Positions 407-37,876 of a stretch of DNA of 51,771 nt are shown piece after piece. This DNA is from Phycisphaerae bacterium (GTDB lineage Bacteria > Planctomycetota > Phycisphaerae > UBA1845 > PWPN01): contig JABRVU010000157.1 of the NCBI GenBank assembly GCA_039961895.1, positions 1 to 51,771 of the forward strand, in the 5' to 3' direction. Every line of letters begins with the position of its first letter. Positions within the stretch are counted from its first letter, which is position 1. The notes under the pieces were generated by a model. That model saw only the letters and a list, made by a program, of their open reading frames with translations, had not been told where the DNA came from and searched no databases. The position numbers and the translations under genes were made by a program.

Positions 407-437
407 CCGACGGCAGGGACCCCGCTCCGGTAGGTAT
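407..437 (+). promoter_or_regulatory. Bipartite motif copy a: CCGACG-N18-TAGGTAT
   Basis: CCGACG 407-412, 18-nt spacer ending CTCCGG, TAGGTAT 431-437. It ends 4 nt before ATG 441. Confidence 0.6.
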
Positions 438-440
438 CCC

Positions 441-1331
441 ATGAACGGAAACCACCCGATTGGAGCAGAGAACGTGAGCCTTCTCGAACTCATGATGCAA
501 CAGACCGCCGGAGGATCAGCCCCGGTCGATACGAGCAACCCGTCGGTCGATGTCTCCAAGCCGGAGACATCGGAACCGGCTGAGCGCAACGGTCCGCAGG
601 AAACCGCCGATCCCGACGGCACCGCCCTCTATGCGGCCACGAATCTGGACTCCTGGGAAACCGACAAACCTCGATACTTCGCGCGGGACGTGGGCATGGA
701 CGGCGTCTGCTATCGCCGTCTGGACCCGGAATACTACGCTTGGCTCCGGCACAAGATGGCGCTGGCCAAAAAAGCGCTGGAGGCAGGACGACTCGATTCC
801 GCCGCCTTCGACGGATTGCGAACCCGCTTCAACGAAATCCATGCATGGGCGGTCGCACGTTTCGGTGAGAACGAGCTTCTCGCCGCCGTTCGGAGCCTCG
901 ATCCCAAGGCATATCCTCCGCCGGCGATTGACCCGGCCGCCCAGAGCCGTCCCGCTTGTGCCGCACCCGTCTCTCCGGTTGCATGTCCCCCTGGACCGGC
1001 TGTCGAGCAATACCTTTACCCCAAGGACGGGGAGTGGCGTTTTACGGAGAAGGTCCCGCAATCGGCCATCGACAAGGTCGATGCCATCCGCGACCAGGCG
1101 CTCTCCCTCGACTGGTCCGAGGCGCGGCTCTATCAGAACCGGGGACGGTTCCGCTTCCCCTGCGGCGAAGACTACGGACTCGTCTGTTTCGTCGATGCCA
1201 ACGAACGCATCGGCCAAGTGACCCGGCAGTACATCGAGATCGTCGGCCCGCCACCGCGGGAGAACCGTCTTCGTTTTCACAACCCCGACGTGGATCAACC
1301 ATGGCTCAAGAGAACGAATCCGGAAACATGA
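441..1331 (+). CDS. Hypothetical protein (296 aa), no family recognised
   Basis: ATG-initiated ORF with high third-position GC. Its stop overlaps an in-frame ATG of the next gene (ATGA at 1328-1331). Confidence 0.6.
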   Translation: MNGNHPIGAENVSLLELMMQQTAGGSAPVDTSNPSVDVSKPETSEPAERNGPQETADPDGTALYAATNLDSWETDKPRYFARDVGMDGVCYRRLDPEYYAWLRHKMALAKKALEAGRLDSAAFDGLRTRFNEIHAWAVARFGENELLAAVRSLDPKAYPPPAIDPAAQSRPACAAPVSPVACPPGPAVEQYLYPKDGEWRFTEKVPQSAIDKVDAIRDQALSLDWSEARLYQNRGRFRFPCGEDYGLVCFVDANERIGQVTRQYIEIVGPPPRENRLRFHNPDVDQPWLKRTNPET

Positions 1332-1594
1332 AACGGCCCTACGCCAATGCCAGGGACGTTCTGCCGTCCGAGGTGCTCGACACCGTCCGGCGGCATTTCA
1401 CCGGTCTCCTCTGGGTGCCGAGCGACGTGGGTTTTTACGAGGAACGCCGCAAGCTCGTATTGGCGCTCAAGGGACAAGGCGTGCCTACCCGCGAAATCGC
1501 CCGGTTGTCCGGCGTCACATCGCGCCGGGTGCGCCAGATCGTGGCTCAGAGCCGCGAGGAATCCATCCCGACGCATCGCGATCCGCTCCGGTAG
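1301..1594 (+). CDS. Small HTH protein, Mor/C-like transcriptional activator candidate
   Basis: Lower part of ORF 956-1594. ATG at 1301; alternative ATG at 1328 in an ATGA overlap with the upstream stop. C-terminal HTH-like stretch: GQGVPTREIARLSGVTSRRVRQIV, preceded by LLWVP...YEERRKLVL, which resembles the Mor family layout. Confidence 0.55.
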   Translation: MAQENESGNMKRPYANARDVLPSEVLDTVRRHFTGLLWVPSDVGFYEERRKLVLALKGQGVPTREIARLSGVTSRRVRQIVAQSREESIPTHRDPLR

Positions 1595-1598
1595 ATAT
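1568..1598 (+). promoter_or_regulatory. Bipartite motif copy b: CCGACG-N18-TAGATAT
   Basis: CCGACG 1568-1573, spacer ends CTCCGG, TAGATAT 1592-1598. The TAG at 1592-1594 is also the stop codon of the HTH gene. Confidence 0.6.
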
Positions 1599-1672
1599 CG
1601 AGGGAGGTTCCCCTGAAGAGGGCGAAATCCGCCTTCCGCCCCGAACCCCGAGATGCCGAAACGAAAAATGCG

Positions 1673-2209
1673 GTGACCATGGCAGACGACCAGGCCCAAG
1701 ACGGGATCGGAAAACACGACGCGGGTCAGCTCAAACGCTGGCACCGCAACGCTGCGTCCGAGCAGGAGGTCCGCAAGACCGCCAAAGCACGGACCGGCAG
1801 CGGCGCGGCTCCGGGCAACCAGAACAGCCTGCGCCACGGCATCTACGCCGACCGCTTTCTCTCCCCGGAGGAGCGACCTCTCTTCGAGGCCATCATCGGC
1901 CAGCTCTACCAGGACTTCGTGTTCAACAAGAGCTCGGACTTCATGCAGGTCGAGCTGGTGGCGGTCTACTTCCTCAAGCTGGGCCGGGCGCAGGAGTCCG
2001 GCGACTGGGACGCCGCCGAGCGGCTGGACCGGATGATCCGCTGCCACCTCAAGGACCTCAAGGCCACCAAGATCGCCCGTGAGGGTGAGGCATCCCAGGG
2101 ACCGGAGACGACGCCGGCTGAGTGGGCCACGGCTCTGCTTGAGAAGCTGGCGGAGTCGCAGAAGAAACCGGCCCGGAAAACGACCGCAAGAGGGAAAACA
2201 CGGAAATGA
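1673..2209 (+). CDS. terS: Putative terminase small subunit
   Basis: GTG at 1673 or ATG at 1679. Contains PGNQNSLRHGIYA, a GNxNxxxHG motif I associate with small terminases, plus a basic C-terminal tail. Sits in the packaging region, but 2.4 kb upstream of terL. Confidence 0.45.
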   Translation: MTMADDQAQDGIGKHDAGQLKRWHRNAASEQEVRKTAKARTGSGAAPGNQNSLRHGIYADRFLSPEERPLFEAIIGQLYQDFVFNKSSDFMQVELVAVYFLKLGRAQESGDWDAAERLDRMIRCHLKDLKATKIAREGEASQGPETTPAEWATALLEKLAESQKKPARKTTARGKTRK

Positions 2210-2473
2210 GGTCGGATAACACCACCACCCGCCATGCAGCGACCCGCGAAACACGCGGACTTGCGGCCAGCGCCGGCCTGGGAATGTCGGATAAGACGTG
2301 TTCTCTGACATTCCGAAGCCGCCGGTCGGCGGAAGGTTCTGTCAATCAATGCTTCCGCCCGGCATCTCAAGGCTTCGATGCCGCCCGCATCATTGCCTGC
2401 GGATGTGTTCGGGGACGCGACTGTAGGCTGACTGTCTCTTTCCTCTGTCATTGCCTGTCCGAAGGCGGGAATG

Positions 2474-2497
2474 GAAAAGCGGCCCGGGTGGACCGCT
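2474..2497 (-). terminator. Weak terminator-like hairpin downstream of the recombinase gene
   Basis: On the minus strand: AGCGGTCC-ACCC-GGGCCGCT (one G-U pair) followed by TTTTCC. Begins 24 nt after the stop at 2521. Confidence 0.35.
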
Positions 2498-2520
2498 TGG
2501 CTTCCATGGTCGGCGGCGGA

Positions 2521-3480
2521 TCAGAGACGCTCGAGGGCGTCCTCCAGCGCGCCGTCCACAAGGTGGGTGTAGACCTGGGTGGTCGACAGGTCCCGGTGAC
2601 CGAGGGCCCGCTGGACCACCAGGATATCTCCGGTCCGGCTGTAGAGGTGGGTGGCGAAGGTATGCCGGAGCGCATGCGGGCTGAGCTTCTTGTCGATGCC
2701 TGCGGCCTTGAGCCAATACTCGAGCCGCCTGGCCACCTGCCGCTCGCAGAGTCGCTCCCCGCGGTTGGAGAGGAACAAAGCCCGGCATTCGCCGTCGCCC
2801 CGGCGTCGGCGCTCGACCAGGTAACTCCGCAGGAGGGATCGCAGAGTGGACTTTAGAAACTTCACTTGCGGGACGGAGCCCTTGGCGAGCACGCGGAGAT
2901 GCTTGGCGTCGAGGTCCACGTCCTCGATGTCAAGGTCGACGAGTTCCTGCAGCCGGATGCCGGTCCCGAGGAAGACCTCGATGATGACGCGGTCCCGGAC
3001 TGCCAGCGAGGATGCCCTGCCGCGAAGTTCCTTGAGCAGACGGCGCTTCTCGGCCTCGGTCAGAAACTTGGGGGGAGTCCGGGGAAGCCTGCGAAGGGTC
3101 AACGACCCGGCCGGATTCTCCCGGACGATTTCGTTCCGCTCGGCCCAGGTGAAGAACGACCGGACGGCCGCCTTGAACCGGTGCATGGACGCCGGCGACC
3201 GGACGCCGCCTCCGGCCGAGGTCGTCACCTGCGGTGAGGTCAACGCCTCGTCGATCATGGGGCTGGTCACCTCCTCCGGGACGATCCCCGGATGCCCCCG
3301 GAGGAGCGCCTCTGACAGGTACGAGAGGTCGCGCAGGTATGCGCTGATGGTGTTCTCCGAACGCCCTTCGGCCGCGAGCCTCCTGCCGAAGGCTTCCAAG
3401 GCTTCGGTGAAACCGGGCCGCGCGCTGGAAGGCTCAGGACTGCTCAGCAGCCGGAGACTCGATGGCGTCGTGTTCGTCAT
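2521..3480 (-). CDS. Tyrosine recombinase, XerC/XerD/phage-integrase family
   Basis: Full catalytic signature: Arg in TGIRLQE, HALRHTFATHL (HxxR), LGHRDLSTTQVYTHL (His...Tyr). The N-terminal core-binding region ENTISAYLRDLSYL is present. Confidence 0.9.
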   Translation of the reverse strand: MTNTTPSSLRLLSSPEPSSARPGFTEALEAFGRRLAAEGRSENTISAYLRDLSYLSEALLRGHPGIVPEEVTSPMIDEALTSPQVTTSAGGGVRSPASMHRFKAAVRSFFTWAERNEIVRENPAGSLTLRRLPRTPPKFLTEAEKRRLLKELRGRASSLAVRDRVIIEVFLGTGIRLQELVDLDIEDVDLDAKHLRVLAKGSVPQVKFLKSTLRSLLRSYLVERRRRGDGECRALFLSNRGERLCERQVARRLEYWLKAAGIDKKLSPHALRHTFATHLYSRTGDILVVQRALGHRDLSTTQVYTHLVDGALEDALERL

Positions 3481-3835
3481 TACGCTCTCCTCCTTTCTTG
3501 GCGCTCCGGCCCATGGGCGTGTCCTTGGGCAGGGGCAGCTTGTCGATGCGGCCGGTATCCTTGGCCCAGATCAGAAACATGCGGAGCACCCGCTTGGTCT
3601 TTTCGACCGTGGGCACGGAGCGCTCCCGCCCGTTGGGCAGCTTGAGCAGCGCATCGGACTTGAAGAATTTTCCCACGTGCGGAATGAGGACGCTGGACAG
3701 CTTGCGCTCCGCACCGAAGAAGGCCTCGATCTGCTCGAAGTCCTTGCCGTAGGTGTAGAGCGTCCGCTCCTTTTTCCCCTGGGTCCGCAGGTGTTCCAGA
3801 TAGGCCTGGGCGGCCTGATGCAGGGTCTCGTTCAT
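3434..3835 (-). CDS. Stand-alone integrase core-binding (SAM-like) domain protein
   Basis: 133 aa. AQAYLEHLRTQGKKERTLYTYGKDFEQIEAFF...TVEKTKRVLRMFLIWAKDTGRI resembles the N-terminal domain of tyrosine recombinases. Overlaps the recombinase start by 47 nt. Confidence 0.55.
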   Translation of the reverse strand: MNETLHQAAQAYLEHLRTQGKKERTLYTYGKDFEQIEAFFGAERKLSSVLIPHVGKFFKSDALLKLPNGRERSVPTVEKTKRVLRMFLIWAKDTGRIDKLPLPKDTPMGRSAKKGGERNDEHDAIESPAAEQS

Positions 3836-4053
3836 GATTCGTTCTCCTTTCGTTTGTTGAGTTCAGGTTTCCCGGACCGGATGGTCCCGGCGTCGAAAAC
3901 GCGCATTCGGCACCTCCTTTCAAACGGCTCAAGTCCTTGTAAATCAAGGCGCTGCGCACATTCACATACAGGCTTCGTGTGCGCCGGAAGTCAAGGCGTT
4001 CCATGCACATTCCAGAGAAACAATCAGGCCCGGGGCGGGCCGGGAGGGGAATC

Positions 4054-4344
4054 ATGAGAAGACAGGTCGAAACGATCCTGAAGGCGCTGTTGGCAGCGAG
4101 TCTGGCGGCATCCCTGCTGGGTTGCGCCGCTGCCAGACCGCCTCAGCGGATTCAGGACGCCATTCACACGGCGAACCGCTATATGCCCGAGTACGTGGCC
4201 GAGGCCAACAAAGCCCTGGCCGACGCGGAGCACCCGGACCGGGAGCGCCTGGTCGGCATCGGTGACCGGTTGGCCGAGGTATTGGACGCCATGGACCGTT
4301 GGGCGTCGAGGCAGGAAAAAACGCCGGAGGAGGACAAGCGATGA
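4054..4344 (+). CDS. Small lipoprotein (96 aa)
   Basis: ATG 4054 preceded by GGGAGGGGA. Signal peptide with lipobox: LAASLAASLLGC. Confidence 0.6.
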   Translation: MRRQVETILKALLAASLAASLLGCAAARPPQRIQDAIHTANRYMPEYVAEANKALADAEHPDRERLVGIGDRLAEVLDAMDRWASRQEKTPEEDKR

Positions 4345-4619
4345 AGGAAATCCTGGAACGGAACAGCGAGGCCGTCCGCGAGGCTGGACGGCAACTGGTC
4401 GAGATCGGTGCGGAGCTGGCTGCCGGGAAAATCGACGATGCCCTGGCCCGGCTCGATACCGCACGGCAGGCTTACCCCGAGTGGGAGGAGCTCGATCAAG
4501 CCGCGGCTGATATCGAAGGGGTGATCCGCGACCGCGAAGGAATGCTCGCCGTCCAGCACATCCTGGCCGAGATCATCGGCACGGTCCTCGGGTCGGCCTT
4601 GAGGTCGAGGCTGCCCTGA
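4341..4619 (+). CDS. Hypothetical helical protein (92 aa)
   Basis: ATGA overlap with the upstream stop. Its TGA overlaps the terL ATG by 1 nt (TGATG), so it looks translationally coupled on both sides. Confidence 0.5.
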   Translation: MKEILERNSEAVREAGRQLVEIGAELAAGKIDDALARLDTARQAYPEWEELDQAAADIEGVIRDREGMLAVQHILAEIIGTVLGSALRSRLP

Positions 4620-6145
4620 TGGCCCGGATATCCGCCAAGGAGCGCAAACTGGCGGAGACCCTGGCGGACCCGGTCCTCTGGGGGCAGGGATACCTGCGCA
4701 ACCGCGACGGGGGACAACGGGTCTACTGGCCGCACCAGGCGGAAGACCTGCTCTGCCCGGACAAAAATATCATCCACCTGGACGGACGCGACGTGGGCAA
4801 GAGCGTCTGCATCACCACCGATGCCCTGCATTTCGCCTTCACCAACCGAGGCTGCCAGGGACTCGTCGCCGCGCCCCACCAAGGGCATCTCGACACGCTG
4901 ATCGAGGAGATCGAATTCCAGCTCGACGCCAACCCGGACCTCATGGTCAGTGTGGCTCTCACCAAATACGGCAAGCCCAAGATTCACCGCAAACCATACT
5001 TCCGGCTCGAATTCACCAACGGCGCGATCCTCTACTTCCGTCCCGCCGGGGCTTACGGCGACGCTTTCCGCTCGCTGCATGTGGACCGGGTCTGGGTGGA
5101 CGAAGGGGCTTGGCTCACCGAGCGGGCCTGGAAAGCCCTTCGCCAGTGCCTGAAGTCGGGCGGCAGACTGCGCATCTATTCGACGCCCAACGGGCTGCGT
5201 GACACGACCTATTACCGCTTGACCGGCTCGACCCAGTTCCGGGTGTTCCGCTGGCCTTCCTGGCTGAACCCGGCGTGGACCCAGGAGCGGGAGGCCGAGT
5301 TGCTGGAGTTCTACGGCGGCCGGGACAGCGCGGGCTGGCAGCACGAGGTGGCCGGCGAACACGGCAAGCCTTCATACGGCGCGTTCAACATCGAGCACCT
5401 CAATCTCTGCCGACAGGATGTGGTCGAGTACCAGAAGGTCGTCGTCACCGGCGGGGAACTGCGTGGCTGCGCCACCGAGGAGGAATCCCACGACCGCCTG
5501 GAGATGCTACTCAATCTCATGCCGCGGACCGGCGTCTTCTGGATCGGAGGAGACTTGGGATACACCAACGACCCGACCGAGATCGTCGTGTTCCAGGAGA
5601 TCGAACTGCCCGAGCGCAGGATCGTCAAGCTGGTTCTGCGGGTCCGCATGGAGCACGTGGCCTATCCTCACATCGCCCAGACCATCGCGCTTCTGGACCG
5701 GTATTACACAGCCGCGGGCATCGGCGTGGACAACGGCGGCAACGGAATGGCCGTCGTTCAGGAACTGCTGACCCTGGACAAGTACAAAGACCTGGCTCTT
5801 CAGGGGCGGCTGCGCGGTTACGACTTCGGGGGCATGACCACCTTGGCCGTGCGCGACGGCCACGAGGTCAGGAAGCGGACCAAGGAATTCATGACCAGCC
5901 TTATCGCCGGGGCGCTCCAGCGACGTCAGCTTGTGTTCCCCATCGACGACCTGGAGATCGAGGATCAGTTCACCACCCACACCTACACGCTGCACGACGG
6001 GCGCATCGTCTATTCCAAGGGCAATGACCACATCATTGACGCCGTGCGCTGCGCCATGCTGGCCCGGGAGCAGTCCACCCTCAACCAAGTGGGCGAGGAG
6101 ACGGTCTCTCTGGTGCCGCTGACGACCGATCCGGTGTTCATCTGA
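4619..6145 (+). CDS. terL: Terminase large subunit
   Basis: 508 aa. Walker A-like LDGRDVGKS, Walker B VWVDEGAW, and a C-terminal nuclease-like region IGGDLGYTNDPTEIVVF ... DHIIDAVRCA. Confidence 0.85.
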   Translation: MARISAKERKLAETLADPVLWGQGYLRNRDGGQRVYWPHQAEDLLCPDKNIIHLDGRDVGKSVCITTDALHFAFTNRGCQGLVAAPHQGHLDTLIEEIEFQLDANPDLMVSVALTKYGKPKIHRKPYFRLEFTNGAILYFRPAGAYGDAFRSLHVDRVWVDEGAWLTERAWKALRQCLKSGGRLRIYSTPNGLRDTTYYRLTGSTQFRVFRWPSWLNPAWTQEREAELLEFYGGRDSAGWQHEVAGEHGKPSYGAFNIEHLNLCRQDVVEYQKVVVTGGELRGCATEEESHDRLEMLLNLMPRTGVFWIGGDLGYTNDPTEIVVFQEIELPERRIVKLVLRVRMEHVAYPHIAQTIALLDRYYTAAGIGVDNGGNGMAVVQELLTLDKYKDLALQGRLRGYDFGGMTTLAVRDGHEVRKRTKEFMTSLIAGALQRRQLVFPIDDLEIEDQFTTHTYTLHDGRIVYSKGNDHIIDAVRCAMLAREQSTLNQVGEETVSLVPLTTDPVFI

Positions 6146-6159
6146 GAGAAACGACCAAA

Positions 6160-6183
6160 GCCTCCAGTGTTTTTCATGGAGGC
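6160..6183. terminator. Hairpin between convergent terL and ATPase genes
   Basis: GCCTCCA (6160-6166) pairs with TGGAGGC (6177-6183), 10-nt loop. On the minus strand it is followed by TTTGGTCGTTTCTC. Confidence 0.45.
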
Positions 6184-6279
6184 ATTCGATTTGACGAAAA
6201 TCCACAAAACCCAGCTTTTTCCCCGGATATCCCGTTTCGATGTCAAGTCCCGTCCCCGGTCAAAAGGAATCTCATGCAG

Positions 6280-7611
6280 CTATTCCGTCGATTCCGGGAG
6301 TTCGAGTAGGAACCGCCATGCCGGTACCACCTCGATGGTCCCGCCGCCGGCCTCGATCCGCTCGTCCTCGTTCCGGGTCACGATGGTTCCGGTTTTCAGT
6401 TTCAGTTCGGCCATCGCCTCACCCAAGGCCGCGGTCTCCCGTTTCCGCGTTTGCGGCTCCGCCAGGGACTCGCACACCTGGACCAGCATCTTGGGCCGGC
6501 CGCGCATCGGTACGATGAAATCGACCTCCCGGCCGGTCCTGGTCTTGTAATAGTAGATTTCCGGATGAAGACGCCGGAGCGTGGTGAACACGAGGTTCTC
6601 CAGGAGATGGCCGGAGTTGACCAGAATTCCTGACGACACCGAAGTGACCAGTGCGTGATCGATGCAGTAGACCTTTTTCGGATTGGTGTTGCTGCGCGCA
6701 AGGGATGGGTCGAATATGCGCACGGTGAACAGGAAATAGGCGTCCTCGAACCATTCCAGGTAATCCGACACCGCGGACTTCGGAGCCTTGTGGCCCAGCG
6801 ACTTGAGATAGCCCGTGAGACTGTTGACCGAGTAATGCGAGGCGGTGTTGTCCACCAGCCAGTGCGCCAGATCGGTCACCGCCTTCGGGTGTGAAACGTC
6901 GTGGCGCTCGACCAAATCCCGAAACAGGATGGTGTGGAAATATTCCTGGTGGGTCTTGATTCTTAAATGTCGGGAGAGACCGGCGACCTCTGGAAAGCCG
7001 CCGGTCTCCCAGTATTCCTCGAAGGCCTTCTGAACGAGGAGCCGCTTCTTCGTCGACAAAGCGCCCTCGCTCTCGATTCCTTTGTAGTCCAGGAATTCCC
7101 TGAACGAAAAGGGAAACATCTCCCACGAAAGCGCCCGCCCGCGCATTTGGGTTGCGATCTCCTTCGACAGCATCCGGGCCGACGAACCGGTCAGATACAC
7201 CTCGCATTTTTCCGTACGCATCAGGCGGTCGACGAAGGGTTCCCAACCGGGGGCGGCCTGAATCTCGTCAAAGAAGCAGTAGACTGTCTCGGTGTTTTTC
7301 TTCTCAGGATAGATGGAGTAATAGGCCTCGGCGATCAGGCCGAGATTGTCCTGCCGCAGGTTGTGGAGGCGGTCGTCGAAAAAATTCAGATACAGAATGT
7401 TCTGCCGGAGGACCCCGCCGTCCAACAGCCGCTGAATGACCTGAAACAGGTATGTCGACTTGCCGCTCCGGCGCACCCCGATGCAGACGGCGGCTTTGCC
7501 GTGAACCGTCTCGATACGCAAACGCCGGGGCACTCCGGTCTCCAGCCGGGTTTCCTGGAAGTCCAGGATGATGGATTTGATCGTTTCTATCATAAGGTCA
7601 CTCCTGGCCAT
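6280..7611 (-). CDS. AAA+ ATPase with C-terminal DUF4143-type domain (COG1373-like)
   Basis: ATG at 7611 (MARSDLMIET); the ORF extension to 7869 is discounted. Walker A GVRRSGKST, Walker B CFFDEIQ. C-terminal GREVDFIV...LVQVCES looks PD-(D/E)xK-like. Sampled lines are about 52% GC versus about 63% in neighbouring genes. Confidence 0.8.
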   Translation of the reverse strand: MARSDLMIETIKSIILDFQETRLETGVPRRLRIETVHGKAAVCIGVRRSGKSTYLFQVIQRLLDGGVLRQNILYLNFFDDRLHNLRQDNLGLIAEAYYSIYPEKKNTETVYCFFDEIQAAPGWEPFVDRLMRTEKCEVYLTGSSARMLSKEIATQMRGRALSWEMFPFSFREFLDYKGIESEGALSTKKRLLVQKAFEEYWETGGFPEVAGLSRHLRIKTHQEYFHTILFRDLVERHDVSHPKAVTDLAHWLVDNTASHYSVNSLTGYLKSLGHKAPKSAVSDYLEWFEDAYFLFTVRIFDPSLARSNTNPKKVYCIDHALVTSVSSGILVNSGHLLENLVFTTLRRLHPEIYYYKTRTGREVDFIVPMRGRPKMLVQVCESLAEPQTRKRETAALGEAMAELKLKTGTIVTRNEDERIEAGGGTIEVVPAWRFLLELPESTE

Positions 7612-7633
7612 GGTTCTTTCCGGTTTCAGCCTC

Positions 7634-7689
7634 ATCCGGAAATAAATATAGCCGGATAGGCCTGTGAGTGTCAAGGGATATTTCCGGAT
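7634..7689. repeat. Perfect 11-bp inverted repeat upstream of the ATPase gene
   Basis: ATCCGGAAATA at 7634-7644 and TATTTCCGGAT at 7679-7689. A third half-site-like CCGGATA lies at 7652-7658. Confidence 0.7.
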
Positions 7690-7724
7690 ACGGTCTGGCA
7701 TTCCCAGCCCGAACAACCCGCCCA

Positions 7725-7755
7725 CCGACGTTCCTTCCCCGCCTCCGGTAGATAA
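7725..7755 (+). promoter_or_regulatory. Bipartite motif copy c: CCGACG-N18-TAGATAA
   Basis: CCGACG 7725-7730, spacer ends CTCCGG, TAGATAA 7749-7755. About 36 nt upstream of the portal ATG. Confidence 0.6.
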
Positions 7756-7790
7756 CCCCAGGGGCGGGCTTTCCCCGCCACACGGCGCGA

Positions 7791-14821: not shown

Positions 14822-14852
14822 CCGACACTTTTCGACGGTCTCCGGTAGGTAT
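14822..14852 (+). promoter_or_regulatory. Bipartite motif copy d: CCGACA-N18-TAGGTAT
   Basis: CCGACA 14822-14827, spacer ends CTCCGG, TAGGTAT 14846-14852. The flank CTGATCCCC..CCGACACTT is shared with copy e. Confidence 0.65.
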
Positions 14853-14955
14853 CCAAGCGACAGGGCTCTCGGCCTGATTTCGGGGTTCACCCCGGGCACG
14901 GGCCGACCGCCCACCGGCATCAACCGGATTTGTCGCGACATGACCGGAGAACCGA

Positions 14956-21739: not shown

Positions 21740-21770
21740 GCCGACACTTCCCGTCCGGCTCCGGTAGGTA
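21740..21770 (+). promoter_or_regulatory. Bipartite motif copy e: CCGACA-N18-TAGGTAT
   Basis: CCGACA 21740-21745, spacer ends CTCCGG, TAGGTAT 21764-21770. Sits at the head/tail module boundary. Confidence 0.65.
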
Positions 21771-21808
21771 TCCAGCGGAAACGTTCGCTTGAGCCGGAGG
21801 AACCGGAA

Positions 21809-22357
21809 TTGGAAACCGTTCGCACAGTCGTTGAAAGCCTGATCCGCCTGATCAAGGCGGAGATCGACCCGGACGCGGTGCTCGTCGCCGCGGACGACGT
21901 CTTCGAGGTGCCCAACGTCCCGAGCCTGATCCTGCAGGGACCGACGCTGGTCGAAAACGGCGACCGCCGCACCATGGCCCACATAGTGGAGAAGGATGTC
22001 CCGAACCTCGTTTATGAACAGTGTCGGCATCCCCGGCTCTACCACCTCGACTTCGACGTCATCGTCACCGCCGGCCATGAAGGCGATCTGCTGGACCTCC
22101 AGGAACGGGTGGCCCGTTTCTATCAGCTCCACCCGGTCCTGACTGTGGAAGGCCGAGGCTCCCTCAACCTGACGGAGATCGTCCCCTTGGGCGGGTTGCG
22201 ACGGGTGAACCTGTCCAACCTGCGCCAGAGCAGCGGCCGCTGCCGGATCGAGGACTGCCCGGTTTACGACGGCCTCGTCGAAACGGGCCCGCTCATCAAA
22301 GACCGCCGGTTCGAGTTCCGGGACGGCGTCGAGGAGGATCGGCTCCATACCCCATGA
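21809..22357 (+). CDS. Putative tail terminator / sheath-proximal tail protein (182 aa)
   Basis: Coding part of ORF 21272-22357. There is no in-frame ATG after the gp10-like stop. TTG 21809 lies 8 nt after GGAGG (21796-21800). Position just upstream of the sheath. Confidence 0.45.
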   Translation: METVRTVVESLIRLIKAEIDPDAVLVAADDVFEVPNVPSLILQGPTLVENGDRRTMAHIVEKDVPNLVYEQCRHPRLYHLDFDVIVTAGHEGDLLDLQERVARFYQLHPVLTVEGRGSLNLTEIVPLGGLRRVNLSNLRQSSGRCRIEDCPVYDGLVETGPLIKDRRFEFRDGVEEDRLHTP

Positions 22358-29729: not shown

Positions 29730-30041
29730 ATGAAACGGATATTCATTTGCAGCCGGTACGCCGGGGACGTTCCCCGGAACACGGCGACCGCCGAACGTCT
29801 CTGCCGGAAGGCGGTGGAACGCGGTTGCGCGCCCTTTGCGCCGCACCTTCTCTACACGCGCTTCCTCGATGACGGAAAGACCTCCGAACGCGAAGCGGGC
29901 ATCGCCTGCGGCCTGACGTTCATGGAGAGCTGCGACGAGGTCTGGGTGTTCACCGGCGACGGTCTTTCCGACGGCATGCGCCGGGAAGTCGATCATGCCA
30001 GGCGTCTGGGCAAGCCCGTGGTAGAACTGGAGGTGCTGTAG
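29730..30041 (+). CDS. DUF4406 / nucleoside 2-deoxyribosyltransferase-like small protein
   Basis: 103 aa. MKRIFICSRYAGD...APFAPHLLY...DEVWVF...S.GM..E pattern, as I remember for DUF4406. Confidence 0.55.
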   Translation: MKRIFICSRYAGDVPRNTATAERLCRKAVERGCAPFAPHLLYTRFLDDGKTSEREAGIACGLTFMESCDEVWVFTGDGLSDGMRREVDHARRLGKPVVELEVL

Positions 30042-30824: not shown

Positions 30825-30855
30825 CCGACACCTCGCGCCGCGCGCCGGTAAGTAT
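30825..30855 (+). promoter_or_regulatory. Bipartite motif copy f: CCGACA-N18-TAAGTAT
   Basis: CCGACA 30825-30830, spacer ends CGCCGG, TAAGTAT 30849-30855. 45 nt upstream of ATG 30901. Confidence 0.6.
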
Positions 30856-30900: not shown

Positions 30901-32166
30901 ATGGATATCGATACCTTCAAACCGACTTTTGTGATCCAGATCGAGGGGCAAACCCTTTCGGCGGATATCACCCAGGAGATCACCTCGTTCGTCTTCGAGG
31001 ACAACGAGGAGGAACTCGACGTGTTGGAGCTTGCGGTCACCGACCGGAACCTCCAGTTCGTCGACGATCCACTGTTCCAGGAGGGCAACGAGATCGTCGC
31101 CCGTTTCGGATATGTCGGCAACCTCTCGCCGCGCAAGAAGGCGGTCATCAAGGATATCGACTACGACTTTCCGGAGGACGGTGACCCGACCATTCGCATC
31201 AAGGCCTACGACAAAGGCTTCAAGCTGGCCGGAAAGGAGAACCAGAAGGTCTGGCAGAAGCCCGCTCCCGGAATCCTCTACTCCGAGATCGCCGAGGAGA
31301 TCGCGGGGGCCAACGGCCTCACTCCGGTGGTCACGCCCACCAAGGGCCGCCATCTGCGCGTAACCCAGAGCAACGTCTCCGACGCGCAGTTCCTCAAGGA
31401 ACTGGCCGGAAAGGCGCGCGACAAGGACGGCGACGGCGTCACCGGATACGTCTTCTACATCCAGGACGACGAGCTGCATTTCCATCCCCGCGATCTGGAC
31501 AAGAAGCCCGCCGCGATCCTCGAGTACTTCACCGACCGCAAGGGCGTTCTGCGTTCCTTCCGCCCCTCGACGCAATCACAGGGAGCCAAGGGAGCGGGCG
31601 TCGAGACCAAGGCCGTGGGCGTGGACCCGCGCAAGAAGGAGCCGGTCGAGCACAAGGCCAACAACGAGACCACCCCGGAGCGGACTTCGTTGGGGAAGCG
31701 GACCTACCTAGTGGACGGGAACACCGGCGAGGGCACTTACAAGGAGCAGGAGTCCGGGCAGGTGGTCCCCACCTTTGACCGTTCCGAGGGCTTCCACGAG
31801 GAGCCGCGACAGGAACCGGCACAGGACCTCTCCGAGGGGAAGTTCCGCGAGGCCGAGCTCCGCCAGGTGGAAGCCGACGCGGTGACCATCGGCATCCCCG
31901 CGCTGCGCGCCAAGCAGAACGTGGAGGTCAAAGGCGTGGGCCGCAAATTCTCGGGCGTCTACTACTGCCATTCGGTCCGCCACGCTTTCGGCGAGGGCGG
32001 ATATCACTGCGAACTGAAACTCAAGAAAAACGCCCTGGGCAAAGGGGCGGGCGACAAGTCGGACGAGGCCAAGGGCAAGCAGAACGACCAGGAAGCGCCG
32101 CCCACACCGAAGGAAGAGCCGCCGCCGATGGTGACCATCGACGCGGACAGCGGGCGGAGGCTGTAA
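30901..32166 (+). CDS. Late control gene D-like tail/baseplate hub protein
   Basis: ATG 30901 after GGAGA; the GTG 30859 extension is discounted. FKPTFVIQIEG..L......SF.FED.....D.LEL pattern of Phage_GPD. Confidence 0.8.
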   Translation: MDIDTFKPTFVIQIEGQTLSADITQEITSFVFEDNEEELDVLELAVTDRNLQFVDDPLFQEGNEIVARFGYVGNLSPRKKAVIKDIDYDFPEDGDPTIRIKAYDKGFKLAGKENQKVWQKPAPGILYSEIAEEIAGANGLTPVVTPTKGRHLRVTQSNVSDAQFLKELAGKARDKDGDGVTGYVFYIQDDELHFHPRDLDKKPAAILEYFTDRKGVLRSFRPSTQSQGAKGAGVETKAVGVDPRKKEPVEHKANNETTPERTSLGKRTYLVDGNTGEGTYKEQESGQVVPTFDRSEGFHEEPRQEPAQDLSEGKFREAELRQVEADAVTIGIPALRAKQNVEVKGVGRKFSGVYYCHSVRHAFGEGGYHCELKLKKNALGKGAGDKSDEAKGKQNDQEAPPTPKEEPPPMVTIDADSGRRL

Positions 32167-32179
32167 GGAGGAAAAGCAT

Positions 32180-32924: not shown

Positions 32925-32939
32925 TCCGGAGGACGGACC

Positions 32940-33989
32940 GTGATCGAGATACAGGACCGGCAGCACGAGGAACGCTACAAGAACCGCTGGTATGGCAAAT
33001 ACCGGGCGTTCGTGCGGGACAACAACGATCCGGAGCGGCTCGGCCGCTGCCGACTCGAAATCCCGGCCGTGCTCGGCACCGGCAAGGAGAACTGGTCGGA
33101 ATGGGCGTGGCCCTGCTTTGCCTACGGAGGCAACGAAGACATCGGCGTGTTTCTCATTCCCGAGGAAGGGGCTTCCGTCTGGGCCGAGTTCGAGGGCGGC
33201 AACGTCCAATACCCGATCTGGTCCGGCGTGTGGCTGGCCAAGACCAACCCCGGCGAACAACCGGAAGAATCGAAGCGCCTGTGCTCCGATCCGACCTGCA
33301 CCGACTGTGAGGACAAGCTCGAACACAAGCCCGATCGGCAAGACGACCTGGAGCACAAGAAACACCACGGCCACCCGCCGTACTACTGCCCGCGCCGCAA
33401 GGTTCTTCTCAAGACCGAAACCGGTCATACCATCGTTCTCGACGACCGGGACGAGGAGGAGTTCCTCAAGGTCATCGACCGGGCCGGACAGATTCTTCAC
33501 ATGGAATGCCGCGTGAAGCGCGACGTTCAGACTGGCAATGCGCGCCGCCGGGGGACCAAGGATGCCGAGCAGGGCGACCAGCTCGACATCGACTCGGACA
33601 TCAAGGACCAGAAGGCCCGGATCGAGATCACCGATCTGTGCCGCCAGTTCGTGCGCTGGGAGGCGTGGAAGGACAAGGAGAAAATCCATATCCAGTCCTG
33701 CGACAAATCCCGCGCCCGGTGGCAGAAGATTCTCATCGACACCACCAAGGGCAAGGAGAAGGTCCACATCTGGGGCCTCTGCGGCACACAGGAAATCCTC
33801 GTCGATTCCACCGCCGGGACCGAGATGATCCGTCTCACGGACAAGGCCGGCCAGGTCGTCGTGATGAACGCGGCCGCCGGTCAGGAGCGCATTCAAGCCA
33901 CGGACAAATCCGGAAGCGTGATCCTCATGGACGCCGTCATGGGGAACATCGTCATCCGCTCGACGAACAAGGTGCTGATCAACCCATGA
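32940..33989 (+). CDS. Baseplate central spike (gpV / gp5 OB-fold) with C-terminal beta-helix
   Basis: YRAFVRDNNDPERLGRCRLEIPAVLG...WAWPC...G.F.IPEEGA.VW.EFEGG....PIW.G matches the Phage_base_V pattern. The C-terminus has repetitive beta-strand units. Confidence 0.85.
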   Translation: MIEIQDRQHEERYKNRWYGKYRAFVRDNNDPERLGRCRLEIPAVLGTGKENWSEWAWPCFAYGGNEDIGVFLIPEEGASVWAEFEGGNVQYPIWSGVWLAKTNPGEQPEESKRLCSDPTCTDCEDKLEHKPDRQDDLEHKKHHGHPPYYCPRRKVLLKTETGHTIVLDDRDEEEFLKVIDRAGQILHMECRVKRDVQTGNARRRGTKDAEQGDQLDIDSDIKDQKARIEITDLCRQFVRWEAWKDKEKIHIQSCDKSRARWQKILIDTTKGKEKVHIWGLCGTQEILVDSTAGTEMIRLTDKAGQVVVMNAAAGQERIQATDKSGSVILMDAVMGNIVIRSTNKVLINP

Positions 33990-34771
33990 CAAACAACGAG
34001 ACGACAAGCCCCGCGGCATCCCTGGTCATGACCGTGTATAACGGCGAGCGTTATCTCGCCGAGGCGGTCGAAAGTGTTCTGGCCCAAACCCGGCGGGACT
34101 TTGAACTGGTCGTCTGGGATGATGGCTCCACTGACCGGACACTGGAGATCGCCCGTGACTACGCCAAGCTGGACGACCGCGTGCGCGTCGTCGCTGCGAA
34201 GCATCTGGGCCGGACCCCGGCGCTCAAGGCCGCGATTGCGGAGACGGCCGCGCCGTACCTCGGCTGGGTCGACGGCGACGACATCCTCGCCGTGACGGCG
34301 TTGGAAGAGACCGCCGCGGTTCTCGACCGGGAATCCTCTGTAGGTCTGGTCTACACCGACTACGTGACCATCGGGGAGGACGGCAAGGCACGCGGCTACG
34401 GCAACCGCTGCCGGATTCCCTTCTCCAAGGACCGGATGCTTCTCGACTTCATGACTTTCCATTTCCGCCTGATGCGGCGCTCGGCCTTCGACGCGGCGGG
34501 CGGCATCGACGAAAGCTTCCGTTGCGCGGAGGACTACGACCTCTGCCTGCGTATGGCGGAGCTGACCGAGGTCCGCCACATCCGCAGACCGCTCTATTAC
34601 TACCGCATCCATGCGGACTCCATCTCCCAGCGCATGCGGATCGAACAGATCCACTGCGCACGCGACGCCGTGGTCCATGCGCTGGAACGGCGAGGCCTGT
34701 CCGACCGGTTCGAGATCGATCTGCAGATACGCGGACGCTTTTCGCTGAGAAGGAGGAAAACGAATGGATGA
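33986..34771 (+). CDS. Family 2 glycosyltransferase
   Basis: ATGA overlap with the spike stop. SLVMTVYNGERYLAEAVESVLAQTRRDFELVVWDDGSTD and VDGDD (DxD). Confidence 0.85.
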   Translation: MTNNETTSPAASLVMTVYNGERYLAEAVESVLAQTRRDFELVVWDDGSTDRTLEIARDYAKLDDRVRVVAAKHLGRTPALKAAIAETAAPYLGWVDGDDILAVTALEETAAVLDRESSVGLVYTDYVTIGEDGKARGYGNRCRIPFSKDRMLLDFMTFHFRLMRRSAFDAAGGIDESFRCAEDYDLCLRMAELTEVRHIRRPLYYYRIHADSISQRMRIEQIHCARDAVVHALERRGLSDRFEIDLQIRGRFSLRRRKTNG

Positions 34772-35138: not shown

Positions 35139-35140
35139 CC

Positions 35141-35404
35141 ATGGCAAGACCCCAGGCGAGACTCGGTGACATCTCCAGCCACGGCGGCGTGATCGTCACA
35201 GGAGCGCTTCGCACCGTAGTCAACGGAAGACCCGCGGCGCGGCTGGGCGATCTGCATGTCTGCCCGATACCGGGCCACGGCGTGACGCCCATCGTCACGG
35301 GCAGCCTCGACACCGCGACGGAAGGGCTGCCGAACGCACGCATCGGCGACATCACGGCCTGCGGCGCGATCATCGTGACCGGCAGCCTGAACACCAACGA
35401 CTGA
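35141..35404 (+). CDS. PAAR-domain spike tip protein
   Basis: 87 aa. Repeated ARLGD / ARIGD motifs and CP.PGHG. Confidence 0.85.
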   Translation: MARPQARLGDISSHGGVIVTGALRTVVNGRPAARLGDLHVCPIPGHGVTPIVTGSLDTATEGLPNARIGDITACGAIIVTGSLNTND

Positions 35405-35413
35405 GGACCGAAG

Positions 35414-35740
35414 ATGGATTTCGAGGAACCGCAGTTTCACTACTGGGACGTCTTCCCCAAGACGGTGAAGGTGTCGCTCACCGGCTGGTCGGTGACGATA
35501 CCGCTTTCCGTGCGCGGCGCTCCCACCGGACAGATCGAGTTCGAATCCGCCGACTCCAACATCGCCTGGGTGGACGAAGACGGAAGGCTGAACCTTGGTT
35601 GGCAGGCCGGTGCGACGGTCGTCATGGCTTACGACTCGGAGAATTGGGACAGCGTCCGCTACATCCAGGTGGAGGTCGTCGATTACGGTCAAAACGGAGG
35701 CGGAGGATACGACGGGTATGGCTATGACTATCCCACATAA
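35414..35740 (+). CDS. Ig-like (Big_2-like) domain protein with Gly/Tyr tail
   Basis: IEFESADSNIAWVDEDGRLNLGWQAGATVVMAY. The C-terminus ends GGGGYDGYGYDYPT. Confidence 0.5.
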   Translation: MDFEEPQFHYWDVFPKTVKVSLTGWSVTIPLSVRGAPTGQIEFESADSNIAWVDEDGRLNLGWQAGATVVMAYDSENWDSVRYIQVEVVDYGQNGGGGYDGYGYDYPT

Positions 35741-36458
35741 CCTTCCATTGTCCTTCTGGGAAGTCGCGCCCTCTCTGATCCGGGAACCGTATCGGGAGAC
35801 GGAACAAGCGGTCCCGGTGGCCGTCATCGGATCGCCCGGCGGCGAGGTGCGGTTTGAGTCCGTCCATCCGGAAATCGCCAGGGTCGAGAACGGTGTGCTG
35901 CGCTTCGGCGCGACACCCGGCGCGACGGTCATCGTCGCCGAAGCGATCCGGGGCGAGGTGGCGTCATCCCGCAGATACATCCAGGTCGACGTGGAGAAGC
36001 CCAAAGCCGCGGTGGTGCTCGACTGGAGACCGTCCGGCTATGTGGAACTTCTGCCGGACGGAACCTGGCACTTTTACTATTTCTCCGGCTGGTACGACGC
36101 TTCCGGCAGCAATATCCGCGTGACCGGGGAGCTCGCATCGGAGGTGACCCTGGACCGGGATTACCTCCTCCGTTTCGACGTCTGGGGCGAGATCGAGAGC
36201 GTGGACGGACCCTATTTCGACCGGCTCGAGTTCTATGTCGACTGGTGGTTTATGCGGAGCTTCAATCCGACTTACGACATGAACGGCGCTCCGCTGCAGC
36301 CGTACCCCGTGCCGCGAAGGACCGAGACCATCGACCTGTCTCAATTCACGGGCGGCACGGTCACACTGCGGTTTCTTTGGGACACGGGCGACGGCCTTTA
36401 CCAGAAGTTCGACGGCTGGTTCGTGCAGAACATCGAACTCATACCTATCGGGAGTTGA
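35718..36458 (+). CDS. Ig-like (Big_2-like) domain + C-terminal jelly-roll-like domain protein
   Basis: ATG 35718 within ORF 35595-36458. VRFESVHPEIARVENGVLRFGATPGATVIV. C-terminal TVTLRFLWDTGDG...GWFVQNIELI. Confidence 0.5.
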   Translation: MAMTIPHNLPLSFWEVAPSLIREPYRETEQAVPVAVIGSPGGEVRFESVHPEIARVENGVLRFGATPGATVIVAEAIRGEVASSRRYIQVDVEKPKAAVVLDWRPSGYVELLPDGTWHFYYFSGWYDASGSNIRVTGELASEVTLDRDYLLRFDVWGEIESVDGPYFDRLEFYVDWWFMRSFNPTYDMNGAPLQPYPVPRRTETIDLSQFTGGTVTLRFLWDTGDGLYQKFDGWFVQNIELIPIGS

Positions 36459-36464
36459 CGGAAC

Positions 36465-37421
36465 ATGGTTGTCGGAAACGGATACGGTTACGGCTACGGA
36501 GAGGAAGACGGCGGGCCGATCATCGAGCAGACGAGTTCGTCGGAATCCCACTATGAACTTATGGCTCTGGCCCGTCTGCTTGCGGCCGGTCTCGGCGTGA
36601 CGGACGGCGAGGGTGAGGAGCCCTATCTCCGAAAGATTCGAGACAGCCTGGCCGAGATCAAAGGCATTCTGCAGCAGAGTCACGACGCCTCCGAAGCCCT
36701 TCGGGCGGAAGCTCGAACGGTACTGGAGGCGCACGCCGAGAGCGCGCAGCAATACATGCAGGTCGTGGATCAACCGATGCCGCCGGACTTCGACCCCTTC
36801 GTCGCCATGCCGGCGGGCACCGCCCTGAGAGATCTTCCGGACGGAGGACGCATCTTCACCCTCGCCGACAGCGTCATGGTTCGGGTGGGACCGGACGGAA
36901 AACTCACGGCCATCGGTATGGATGGCTCTGTGACCCTTCTCGAACCCGCGCGCGGCGGCGTGGTGACGCTTCCCGACGGTCGGGAGCTGATGCTCAAGCC
37001 CGAGGCGGTGCGTGTGACCCACGAAGCGGCCGGAATCGAAGGGCTTCCCCTGGACATCGATCCGATACAGACCGCGCAGGGGCGCTGCCGCGTGGAGCTG
37101 CCGGACGGATACCGGTTGGATGTATTTCAGTCAGAGCGTGCGGCCATGATCGGCAACCCCGCCGGCACCTCGGTGGTGCTCGGGATTTCCCGGATCGAGG
37201 GCGTGGGAGAGGATGTCGAGGTTCGTCTGGTGCCCGGCGGGGCCAAGGGCTTTACGGCCATGGAAAGCGGTCACAAGGGCGTCATCGAGGCCGACGGCAC
37301 GATCCATGTCGCCATGGCGAACGGGTTGGACCTGGTCATTCATTTCCCGGACGACGATGACTCGAATGGAGGCCCAGGTTCGGGTGACCCGCCCGCCTGC
37401 ATCTGCGAGGAGCGTGACTGA
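36465..37421 (+). CDS. Hypothetical protein (318 aa) with N-terminal GYGYGYG motif
   Basis: ATG start. No family recognised. Ends in a TGATG overlap with the gpW gene. Confidence 0.5.
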   Translation: MVVGNGYGYGYGEEDGGPIIEQTSSSESHYELMALARLLAAGLGVTDGEGEEPYLRKIRDSLAEIKGILQQSHDASEALRAEARTVLEAHAESAQQYMQVVDQPMPPDFDPFVAMPAGTALRDLPDGGRIFTLADSVMVRVGPDGKLTAIGMDGSVTLLEPARGGVVTLPDGRELMLKPEAVRVTHEAAGIEGLPLDIDPIQTAQGRCRVELPDGYRLDVFQSERAAMIGNPAGTSVVLGISRIEGVGEDVEVRLVPGGAKGFTAMESGHKGVIEADGTIHVAMANGLDLVIHFPDDDDSNGGPGSGDPPACICEERD

Positions 37422-37876
37422 TGGCTTTGGATTTTCTCGGACGCGGGCTTAAGTTCCCTTTCCGCTTTCAGCGGCGGTCCGGTGGCGCGCAGGTTTCCTC
37501 GGCCACCTCCACCGAGCACGAACACATCCACGAGAGCATCCTCCAGATTCTCGGCACCCGGCCGGGCGAACGCTTCATGCGCCCGGAATTCGGCTCGAAA
37601 CTCAAGGACCTGGTGTTCGAGCCGAACGATGAGGTGCTGAAGGGGCTGATCCGCCATTATGTGATCGACGCCGTGAAGCGCTGGGAGAAACGGATCGTCA
37701 TCACCGGCGTCTCCTTCGACGATTCCCCCGCGAACAAGGATCGCAATCTTCTCCCGGTCCGCATCGCCTATCGCGTCATCCAGAGCCAGGTGGAGGGCAA
37801 CCTGGTCTATCCCTTTTACCGCGAACCGCGCCAATCCGCTCCGCCCCGACAGTTCCGCTCCGTCGCCGGTAAGTAA
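37421..37876 (+). CDS. Baseplate wedge protein gpW / gp25-like
   Basis: GRGLKFPF......G......HI.ESI.QILGT.PGER.M.PEFGS.L..L.FEPN is the GPW_gp25 signature. Confidence 0.85.
   Translation: MALDFLGRGLKFPFRFQRRSGGAQVSSATSTEHEHIHESILQILGTRPGERFMRPEFGSKLKDLVFEPNDEVLKGLIRHYVIDAVKRWEKRIVITGVSFDDSPANKDRNLLPVRIAYRVIQSQVEGNLVYPFYREPRQSAPPRQFRSVAGK
37846..37876 (+). promoter_or_regulatory. Bipartite motif copy g: CCGACA-N18-TAAGTAA
   Basis: CCGACA 37846-37851, spacer ends CGCCGG, TAAGTAA 37870-37876. The TAA at 37874-37876 is the gpW stop codon. Confidence 0.55.

Follow-up and report, generated by a model that had tools for sequence, protein, structure and literature searches.

A conserved bipartite motif at phage module boundaries as the probable promoter of a phage-encoded ECF-like sigma factor

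A 51,771-bp stretch of DNA from a Phycisphaerae bacterium (contig JABRVU010000157.1; hereafter the window) encodes a myovirus-type structural region (63% G+C), in which a first-pass annotation had noticed repeated copies of a bipartite motif, CCGACR-N14-CCGGTARRTAW. Based on our analyses of the window and of related viruses and prophages, we propose that the motif copies are the cognate promoters of a phage-encoded sigma factor resembling those of the extracytoplasmic function (ECF) group, and that they drive the replication, packaging, head, tail, and baseplate modules; we put the probability of this reading at roughly 0.75. The sigma gene lies to the left of the window, on an overlapping contig. 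Loci with a closely related sigma gene carry the motif beside it without exception, and in intermediate sigma clades the motif changes together with the sigma factor.

Seven co-oriented copies with fixed geometry

The exact pattern occurs seven times in the window, always on the + strand (copies a to g, Table 1), and not once in 100 dinucleotide-preserving shuffles of the same sequence, which bears out the claim of seven co-oriented copies of fixed geometry. Six of the coordinates first given were right, and copy e lies at 21741-21771 rather than at 21740-21770. Scanning the window with up to three mismatches allowed returned the same seven copies and no extras, with 0.85 matches expected. The absence of near-misses suggests that the motif set is sharply bounded and not the tip of a degenerate family. 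The C directly after the motif, at position 32, is constant in 7/7 copies as well, which brings the count of invariant positions from the 13 first reported to 14. The motif is almost certainly a real and functional feature.

For a sequence logo, we kept 43 out of 180 viral instances, pairwise <70% identical over 151 nt. Conservation is limited to positions 0-33 plus a purine peak, with none upstream or further downstream. The first box reads T-CCGAC-R-s-W-T-y (positions 0-10) and the second y-T-CCGGTA-R-G-TA-W-C-c (positions 19-33), with 8 unconstrained positions between them, and the purine peak falls at positions 37-39 (38/43, 35/43, and 36/43). In all instances, the box-to-box distance is constant, with the register GAC-N16-CGGTA, and the boxes are asymmetric: TCCGACA and TCCGGTA are in direct rather than inverted orientation. 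The size and shape of the motif would fit a promoter with a start site 6-8 nt past the second box. The first-pass annotation had likened the layout to a -35/-10 promoter, and the likeness stands for an element that is bipartite, co-oriented, of fixed geometry, and located at syntenic module boundaries.

Conservation across related viruses and prophages

The motif is a family-wide element, present in hundreds of related viral and prophage contigs. We found the exact pattern in at least 120 IMG/VR stretches among the matches listed, many of them with two or three co-oriented copies. A one-genome-per-species collection was also scanned for the exact pattern, with figures that again apply to the matches listed. 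Here, single matches mix real sites with chance or coding-sequence matches, for example in an alphaproteobacterial gene; by our own estimate, a few hundred chance matches are expected in 596 Gb. Because many singles are of this kind, we based the host range only on multi-copy loci, isolates, and closed chromosomes. Hosts identified in this way belong to the Acidobacteriota (a Chloracidobacterium isolate, and closed Bryobacterales and Terriglobia chromosomes), the Desulfobacterota (several isolates), and the Gammaproteobacteria (Ectothiorhodospira shaposhnikovii), and there are probably hosts in further groups beyond the first two and this one gammaproteobacterium. A distribution across three bacterial groups fits a specificity factor supplied by the phage itself. 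A megablast search of 25 kb against 50,697 phage records gave no match, and a full-text literature search for CCGGTAAGTAA returned unrelated primer-type matches only.

The strand rule holds in sets of loci that were collected without the motif. In 80 loci (1.29 Mb) retrieved via protein X, which is encoded directly after copy a, 183 matches with at most one mismatch lie on the strand of the X gene vs 0 on the opposite strand; in a set retrieved via PDDEXK_1 (0.93 Mb), the exact matches number 53 vs 0. A one-mismatch copy on the opposite strand (CCGACACTTCCATGAGCCCCTCGGTAGGTAA) was seen at 1102-1132 (minus) in a relative, L338 (loci carry our own L labels), with equivalents in ~20 related loci. 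This copy is aimed at a 197-aa gene that runs leftward, within a control region of divergent genes ~4 kb upstream of the sigma gene. These rare minus-strand copies face minus-strand genes, suggesting that motif orientation follows the gene served.

Across relatives, the motif was tallied in 198 distinct instances, which stand ahead of the gene classes known from the window; those proteins are as low as 39-60% identical. The downstream gene encodes the portal in 45 instances, terS in 41, the methyltransferase-fusion head protein of the copy d junction in 27, and X in 22; it is the first tail gene of the copy e junction, after the tail completion gene, in 16, the hub gene of the copy f junction in 7, baseplate J of the copy g junction in 7, and falls into no class in 33. 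This gene is always co-oriented with the motif, and its start is usually 25-100 nt downstream. Flanks, spacers, and proteins diverge among relatives, while the motif and the gene junction stay. The module boundaries at which the copies lie in the window are syntenic in diverged relatives, in line with the placement ahead of functional blocks that had been described.

A phage-encoded sigma factor to the left of the window

By looking up the window's protein X, we found contig L408, which is 100.000% identical to window positions 1-11331 over 11,331 bp (blastn) and extends 9,560 bp leftwards (window coordinate = L408 coordinate minus 9560). Near its left end, L408 encodes a sigma factor (Table 1) that matches the NCBIfam model TIGR02937 sigma70-ECF with 45.5 bits (cut-off 42.9) over residues 15-187, from sigma2 to sigma4. 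Its best PDB sequence matches are the ECF factors SigE/RpoE, and its family of 398 homologs bears the source name "RNA polymerase sigma-70 factor (ECF subfamily)." Directly after the sigma gene comes the eighth exact copy of the motif, followed by a 104-aa open reading frame (ORF), PDDEXK_1, AAA_24, DUF669, an inserted minus-strand island, primase, and then X. Many motif loci encode sigma homologs, as a rule ~9-10 kb upstream of X. Beside sigma, the gene tables show no anti-sigma gene; its neighbors there are a 110-aa ORF and replication genes.

In relatives, the left end of the prophage runs from host genes through a serine recombinase, a LexA/S24-type repressor, and small genes to sigma, the motif, and the replication module. 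Ahead of the 110-aa ORF and sigma lie two CGAAATTTCG palindromes and a terminator-like hairpin (L415 9177-9486, with equivalents in L413 and L414); upstream of these elements, a LexA/S24-type repressor is encoded, as is a serine recombinase with DUF2924. This palindrome and repressor region is likely the lysogeny switch controlling sigma. A further exact motif copy was observed at the left end of the L415 prophage (2929-2959), ahead of an operon of a 73-aa ORF, DUF2924, and the serine recombinase, and its sequence type recurs in L191 and L199; the sigma regulon may include the excision genes as well. In L332, L365-type loci, and L414, exact or one-mismatch copies lie ahead of the sigma operon itself, an arrangement that would give the positive autoregulation typical of ECF sigma factors.

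The sigma leader is conserved (L408 1-170; L413; L414 9820-10000) and combines a long-range helix with a hairpin (gagctcctcctcgg-cc-ccgaggaggctc). The hairpin is predicted to sequester the GGAGG ribosome-binding site directly before the ATG, so sigma translation may be controlled.

Association and covariation of sigma factor and motif

To relate sigma and motif, we used 80 loci retrieved via PDDEXK_1, a selection independent of both. Where the sigma factor is at least 39% identical to the reference sigma, the motif is adjacent in 45/45 loci, vs 1/29 loci with other sigma clades and 0/6 loci with no sigma match. Within the group of 45, the motif begins mostly 7-8 nt past the end of the sigma alignment.

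Intermediate sigma clades carry variants of the motif at the same spot, with the register preserved. The variant of the L250 sigma clade is TCCCGTAGGTA and that of the L270 clade is TTCCCGTAAGTAAC, both with CCCGTA in all copies, while the clade of L357, L359, and L391 has CCGGCA-N14-CCAGTAAATATC in both L357-clade copies, the spacers of which are unrelated. In these variant clades, all copies of a genome change in concert. We also looked for an alternative promoter in X lineages that lack the motif; a single CGTATAGG-like element, located within the iteron region described below, was insufficient for covariation. L415 has an insertion, a 2.3-kb minus-strand gene, that separates sigma from the motif, and the motif remains with the downstream replication operon. 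This suggests that the motif is a promoter of the downstream genes and not a 3'-end signal of the sigma gene.

Known ECF promoters typically show AAC at the -35 and a -10 element that is specific to the group, adhere closely to their consensus, and have 14-17-bp spacers, with a possible T-tract after the -35 (PMC5758882). In the present family, a putative cognate sigma is encoded in the same element (198 aa, on L408), the spacing is rigid and within that range (GAC-N16-CGGTA), and the promoter co-varies with the sigma clade. In the -10-like box CCGGTA-R-G-TA-W-C, CGGTA resembles CGTA plus one extra G. The ECF sigma reclassification was unable to capture phage ECFs (PMC7826278), and literature searches on promoters of phage ECF sigma factors returned phiEco32-type phages only.

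The HTH protein and protein X

The first-pass annotation had named a Mor-like helix-turn-helix (HTH) protein, encoded between X and terS, as the candidate cognate activator. As the specificity factor, this protein would bind the motif and recruit the host sigma-70 holoenzyme in the way of Mor and C in phage Mu, perhaps autoregulating via copy a. Several observations agree with such a role. Over the 80 X-retrieved loci, HTH gene and motif are both present in 56 and both absent in 21, with the motif alone in 3 and the HTH gene alone in 0. The motif also overlaps the 3' end of the HTH gene, as Pm overlaps mor and Plys abuts C in Mu, and phrog_836 ("late transcriptional activator") matches 27/27 HTH family members. 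The Pfam model Mor (PF08765) aligns over profile positions 32-105 of 107; however, this match is below threshold (E=0.015, 15.7 bits, cut-off 24.9) and is found in 2/27 members, and hhalign against Mu Mor and C gives E ~0.02 and a probability of 2%. With sub-threshold signals only, we do not classify the protein as a Mor family member.

Three lineages with motif but no HTH speak against this role. Each encodes a 199-246-aa protein with a motif copy at the 3' end of its gene, and Pfam Sigma70_r2 scores above the gathering cut-off in 3/3; these lineages carry an ECF-type sigma instead, and the phage of the window encodes the same sigma. A motif copy also heads the replication module, upstream of the HTH gene and presumably expressed earlier, and the motif variant follows the sigma clade. 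There is no dyad and no conservation upstream of the -35-like box. Nor is there a sigma-70-type -10 element: at the sixth base of TARRTA, sigma-70 requires T but the motif has an invariant A, and no other register gives A2 together with T6. We consider it unlikely that the HTH protein is the factor that reads the motif.

Other polymerase partners were rejected. A reading by host sigma-70, sigma-28, or sigma-32 does not suit a -10-like box without T at the last hexamer position, and a likeness to the sigma-28 -10 element (GCCGATAA vs TCCGGTAA) was dropped once the phage sigma with clade-matched variants had been found. A promoter for a single-subunit, T7-like RNA polymerase would call for one contiguous conserved block of ~20 nt together with a phage polymerase gene; the motif is bipartite with 8 free positions, and neither the window nor the adjoining 9.56 kb on the left yielded an RNA polymerase gene.

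A combined scheme is also improbable in our judgment; here, the boxes would be recognized by the ECF sigma, with the HTH protein (or X) serving at all or some of the copies to co-activate or to set the timing. In its favor, many lineages have a motif copy on either side of the X-HTH cassette, the cassette lies where early and late regions meet, and phiEco32 offers a precedent in gp73, a small modulator of some sigma-dependent promoters. Against this, HTH-less lineages retain the motif, and a comparison by eye of "middle" copies (after sigma, before X) and "late" copies revealed no systematic sequence difference of the kind expected from an extra binding site.

The last 9 codons of the HTH gene are copy b in frame, such that the conserved tail PTH...R* of the protein is the motif. 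Its AlphaFold 2 (AF2) model (predicted local distance difference test, pLDDT, 74) has a small beta/alpha N-terminal part and a three-helix HTH. By type, the HTH falls with those of LuxR, sigma region 4, or resolvases; in the fold search, it came out as generic and three-helical, and matches to Sigma70_r4 are weak.

Protein X has 701 homologs, all unannotated. It has no Pfam or NCBIfam domain, and no similar fold was found in the PDB for its AF2 model (pLDDT 68; best E = 1.4). We had considered X as a hidden sigma factor and rejected it as a recognizable one, given no fold, Pfam, or NCBIfam match. A motif copy is found at the same site upstream of X in 51/80 loci retrieved via X.

Between the primase gene and X, at window positions 80-403, at least 10 GCGAAGG/CCTTCGC iterons form direct and inverted arrays around an AT-rich stretch (~305-345). 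The iteron sequence here is particular to each X lineage, examples being ACGTCCCCA, GATCCCGAC, GTCCCCGCA, and GGTACCGCG. The array looks like an origin of replication or a binding array of X.

RNA-level and other DNA-level functions

The first-pass annotation had also raised an element acting at the RNA level as an alternative; candidates would be an elongation signal (an ops/RfaH-like or Q-like loading site for antitermination), an RNA processing site, or a terminator-associated element. Copies of the motif do lie between genes of long co-directional operons, and some downstream leaders are strongly structured. The ops element contains CGGTAG, within the ops-like 12-mer GGCGGTAGnnTG, and the window clade contains CGGTAG like the ops core; however, CGGTAG is all that the motif and the 12-mer have in common, and most family members have CGGTAA. 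The motif has no consensus secondary structure (alifold -0.97 kcal/mol) and folds no better than its own shuffles (median z = +0.57), spacer columns are without covariation, and no spacer pair is >55% pairable. No copy has an Rfam match, and no NusG/RfaH or Q domain was found in the scanned window genes or in the L408 and L415 gene tables. A bipartite layout with a free 8-nt spacer fits recognition of duplex DNA, and the L415 motif follows the downstream operon after the insertion. An RNA-level role is very unlikely on these grounds.

The motif might instead be bound in the course of a DNA transaction other than transcription, for example in packaging, replication, partition, or recombination. 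It is highly conserved and multi-copy, and the iteron-rich, origin-like region adjoins copy a. However, the copies are strictly co-oriented with downstream genes, the rare minus-strand copies included, they sit 25-100 nt ahead of start codons at module boundaries, and the iterons are lineage-specific where the motif is not. We regard a function of this kind as very unlikely and as the least probable of those considered here.

Proposed transcription program

If the motif is the promoter of the phage sigma factor, then sigma binding, start-site position, and the order of the cascade would be as follows. On opening of the lysogeny switch, host RNA polymerase would make the phage sigma, which is probably the first product of derepression and would then switch on all other modules. 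Core polymerase with this sigma would recognize the -35-like box, (T)CCGAC-R with a brief T-rich run behind it, and the same holoenzyme would recognize the -10-like box, (y)TCCGGTA-R-G-TA-W-C, at the fixed distance GAC-N16-CGGTA. Transcription would start at a purine ~6-8 nt past the second box. A single, near-invariant promoter class would in this way drive replication, X-HTH, terS and packaging, portal, head, tail, hub, and baseplate J with the fibers. The Mor-like HTH protein would be an accessory at most, that is, a modulator, a co-activator, or an unrelated DNA-binding protein.

Several points weigh against this proposal. Sigma binding and start sites rest on inference for every family member. 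The -35-like box has an invariant GAC in place of the AAC of ECF promoters, with only AC in common, and the -10-like box CGGTA...GTA is longer than usual for them. The HTH protein tracks the motif closely too, which is compatible with a joint requirement with sigma. The association was counted over genomes that are related to each other, without phylogenetic independence, and for the most distant sigma clades no clean alternative promoter was identified, so covariation rests on the intermediate clades. The sequence upstream of sigma in L408 spans 170 nt, and the candidate autoregulatory copies come from other lineages. Finally, tblastn searches of X and HTH against 50,697 GenBank phage records found no cultured phage that encodes either.

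A bolder version of the proposal, which we rate as rather unlikely, is that the whole lytic program in at least three phyla is run by one host-independent sigma/promoter pair that functions unchanged in all of them, with timing imposed by the X-HTH cassette rather than by separate promoter classes, and with the HTH protein acting as a sigma-region-4-like mini-protein on the same promoters. If true, the sigma/promoter pair together with X-HTH timing would amount to an orthogonal transcription module that is portable across phyla and has a timing device of a new kind.

Gene modules and inserted islands

The features of the window and of the adjoining part of L408 are listed in Table 1.

Table 1. 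Motif copies, candidate regulators, and inserted genes (window coordinates unless L408 is given)
Feature	Position	Strand	Remarks
ECF-type sigma gene	L408 171-767		198 aa; TIGR02937; ~9.4 kb left of window
Eighth exact motif copy	L408 772-802		4 nt after sigma stop codon; heads replication module
Motif copy a	407-437	+	CCGACGGCAGGGACCCCGCTCCGGTAGGTAT; exact match; heads X-HTH cassette
Protein X	474-1331	+	Uncharacterized conserved phage protein; start GTG 474 inferred from relatives
HTH protein	1301-1594	+	97 aa; Mor-like architecture, sigma-region-4-like HTH
Motif copy b	1568-1598	+	Heads terS (1673-2209), packaging genes, terL (4619-6145)
Tyrosine integrase	2521-3480	-	Insertion in packaging module
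AAA_14/DUF4143 ATPase gene	6280-7593	-	Insertion in packaging module; start 7593 from relatives' gene calls
Sigma-70-type promoter	7645-7674	-	Canonical, TTGACA-18-TATATT; for inserted AAA_14/DUF4143 ATPase gene
Motif copy c	7725-7755	+	Heads portal (7791-9437) and 1595-aa MuF fusion
Motif copy d	14822-14852	+	Heads head module: Dam-methyltransferase fusion (14956-18819), scaffold, major capsid (19217-20080)
Motif copy e	21741-21771	+	Heads tail module: gene 21809-22357, sheath (22648-24504), tube, tape measure
Motif copy f	30825-30855	+	Heads tail/baseplate-hub gene (ATG, 30901-32166) and peptidase
Motif copy g	37846-37876	+	Heads baseplate J (37944-39353), P2-I-like gene, fiber genes

The block labels of the first-pass annotation need one refinement: "protease/capsid" is imprecise for the block after copy d, which begins with a 1287-aa Dam-methyltransferase fusion, followed by scaffold and major capsid. 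Its remark that the motif doubles as the stop codon of the preceding gene is confirmed for copy b, where the HTH gene ends at TAG 1592-1594, and for copy g, where the gp25 gene ends at TAA 37874-37876. The gap between copy a and ATG 441 is 3 nt rather than 4 nt. That start codon was rightly suspected of being mis-set, as X begins in relatives at the codon corresponding to GTG 474, with a GGAG 8 nt upstream of it; with this probable start, the copy a transcript need not be leaderless.

Genes inserted into the packaging module have no motif copy ahead, as had been noted for the island genes; the ATPase gene has a sigma-70-type promoter instead, and copy c sits beside it in the divergent intergenic region. 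In a consensus scan of 40 kb, this minus-strand promoter was the single sigma-70-like match, with 0 predicted on the + strand. The motif is thus the sole promoter candidate for the long + strand region. The inserted island genes would use host-type promoters of their own. Close relatives carry an extra Metallophos gene beside the ATPase, suggesting that the site is a variable island hotspot. Three further loci lack a motif copy of their own: an amidoligase_2 and glutamine-amidotransferase gene pair at the right end (49057-51331), and, within the tail/baseplate region, a glycosyltransferase (33506-34771) and a nucleoside 2-deoxyribosyltransferase-like gene (29730-30041).

The leaders that follow copies c, d, and g (7761-7800, 14858-14927, and 37882-37950) are strongly structured, with -26, -40, and -31 kcal/mol per 70 nt, respectively. 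The leader hairpin of the portal class has an ACAC/ACAG loop and, by eye, keeps its shape with differing stems across lineages; it may be a translational or stability element. The portal is followed by a 1595-aa MuF-domain protein (phrog_6577) encoded at 9212-13999. The 1287-aa protein encoded at 14956-18819 has an N-terminal Dam-type N6-adenine methyltransferase and a C-terminal part weakly like head protease/capsid families. Unrelated to the motif, an intergenic gap of the baseplate region (35242-35321, +) has a full-length Rfam match to the Pseudomonas small RNA P10 (RF01668; 40 bits, gathering score 37).

Comparison with known systems

Few phage ECF-like sigma factors have known promoters, and in this family a candidate regulon is readable from sequence: a sigma gene beside the lysogeny switch, and 8-9 near-identical putative promoters that would split a ~60-kb prophage into transcription units. 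For annotation, the motif offers a rule for calling operon starts and correcting start codons in the family, and its absence marks inserted islands. The sigma/promoter pair, with its natural variants CCGGTA, CCCGTA, and CCAGTA, is a candidate source of orthogonal expression parts for poorly tractable anaerobes. The case also illustrates that an obvious candidate within a window, here the Mor-like HTH protein, can mislead when the real factor is encoded outside it.

The virulent podovirus phiEco32 infects E. coli, and its gp36, together with SU10, is the nearest precedent; as proposed here, a phage ECF-type sigma is combined with a handful of phage promoters that share a tight motif, and in phiEco32 it redirects the core polymerase of the host to them. 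The present family is by comparison temperate and myovirus-like, and the two sigma factors are likened by description, not by sequence. The phiEco32 sigma reads three middle and three late promoters with tAATGTATAtA located 6-8 nt upstream of the starts (PMC4281155). Both motifs hold a GTA core in the -10-like part; the phiEco32 motif is described as a single element, whereas here there is an additional, equally conserved -35-like box at a fixed distance.

Among bacterial ECF factors, sigmaW of B. subtilis (TGAAAC-N16-CGTA) has promoters that are, like the motif, bipartite with a rigid spacer and close adherence to the consensus. Bacterial ECF promoters and the motif also share a T-rich stretch after the -35 (motif positions 8-10), and putative autoregulatory copies of the motif occur in some lineages. 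The motif differs from the sigmaW type in its -35 core, GAC rather than AAC, and in a -10 element, CGGTA-R-G-TA-W-C, that is longer than CGTA/CGTC.

The resemblance to Mu Mor/C lies in a small HTH protein at the early/late boundary, in a target-like element that overlaps or abuts the 3' end of the activator gene, and in several late operons with one copy each. Mu promoters consist of a dyad activator site around -43 and a sigma-70 -10 element (TAnnnT), and unlike them the motif has neither. In its replication, too, the present phage departs from Mu, with a primase/helicase module and with no transposase seen among the regions examined.

Phage sigma-family proteins also give phage genes a promoter class of their own in SPO1 (gp28, gp33/34) and T4 (gp55). 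These phages rely on sigma proteins of other types and on one promoter class after another for their middle and late genes, unlike the present family, in which a single promoter class appears to serve replication and structural genes alike. Phage-encoded ECF sigma factors with their own promoters are thus already known in kind, and this sigma/motif pair would be a further member of that kind, shared by a large, unstudied family of prophages from several bacterial phyla.

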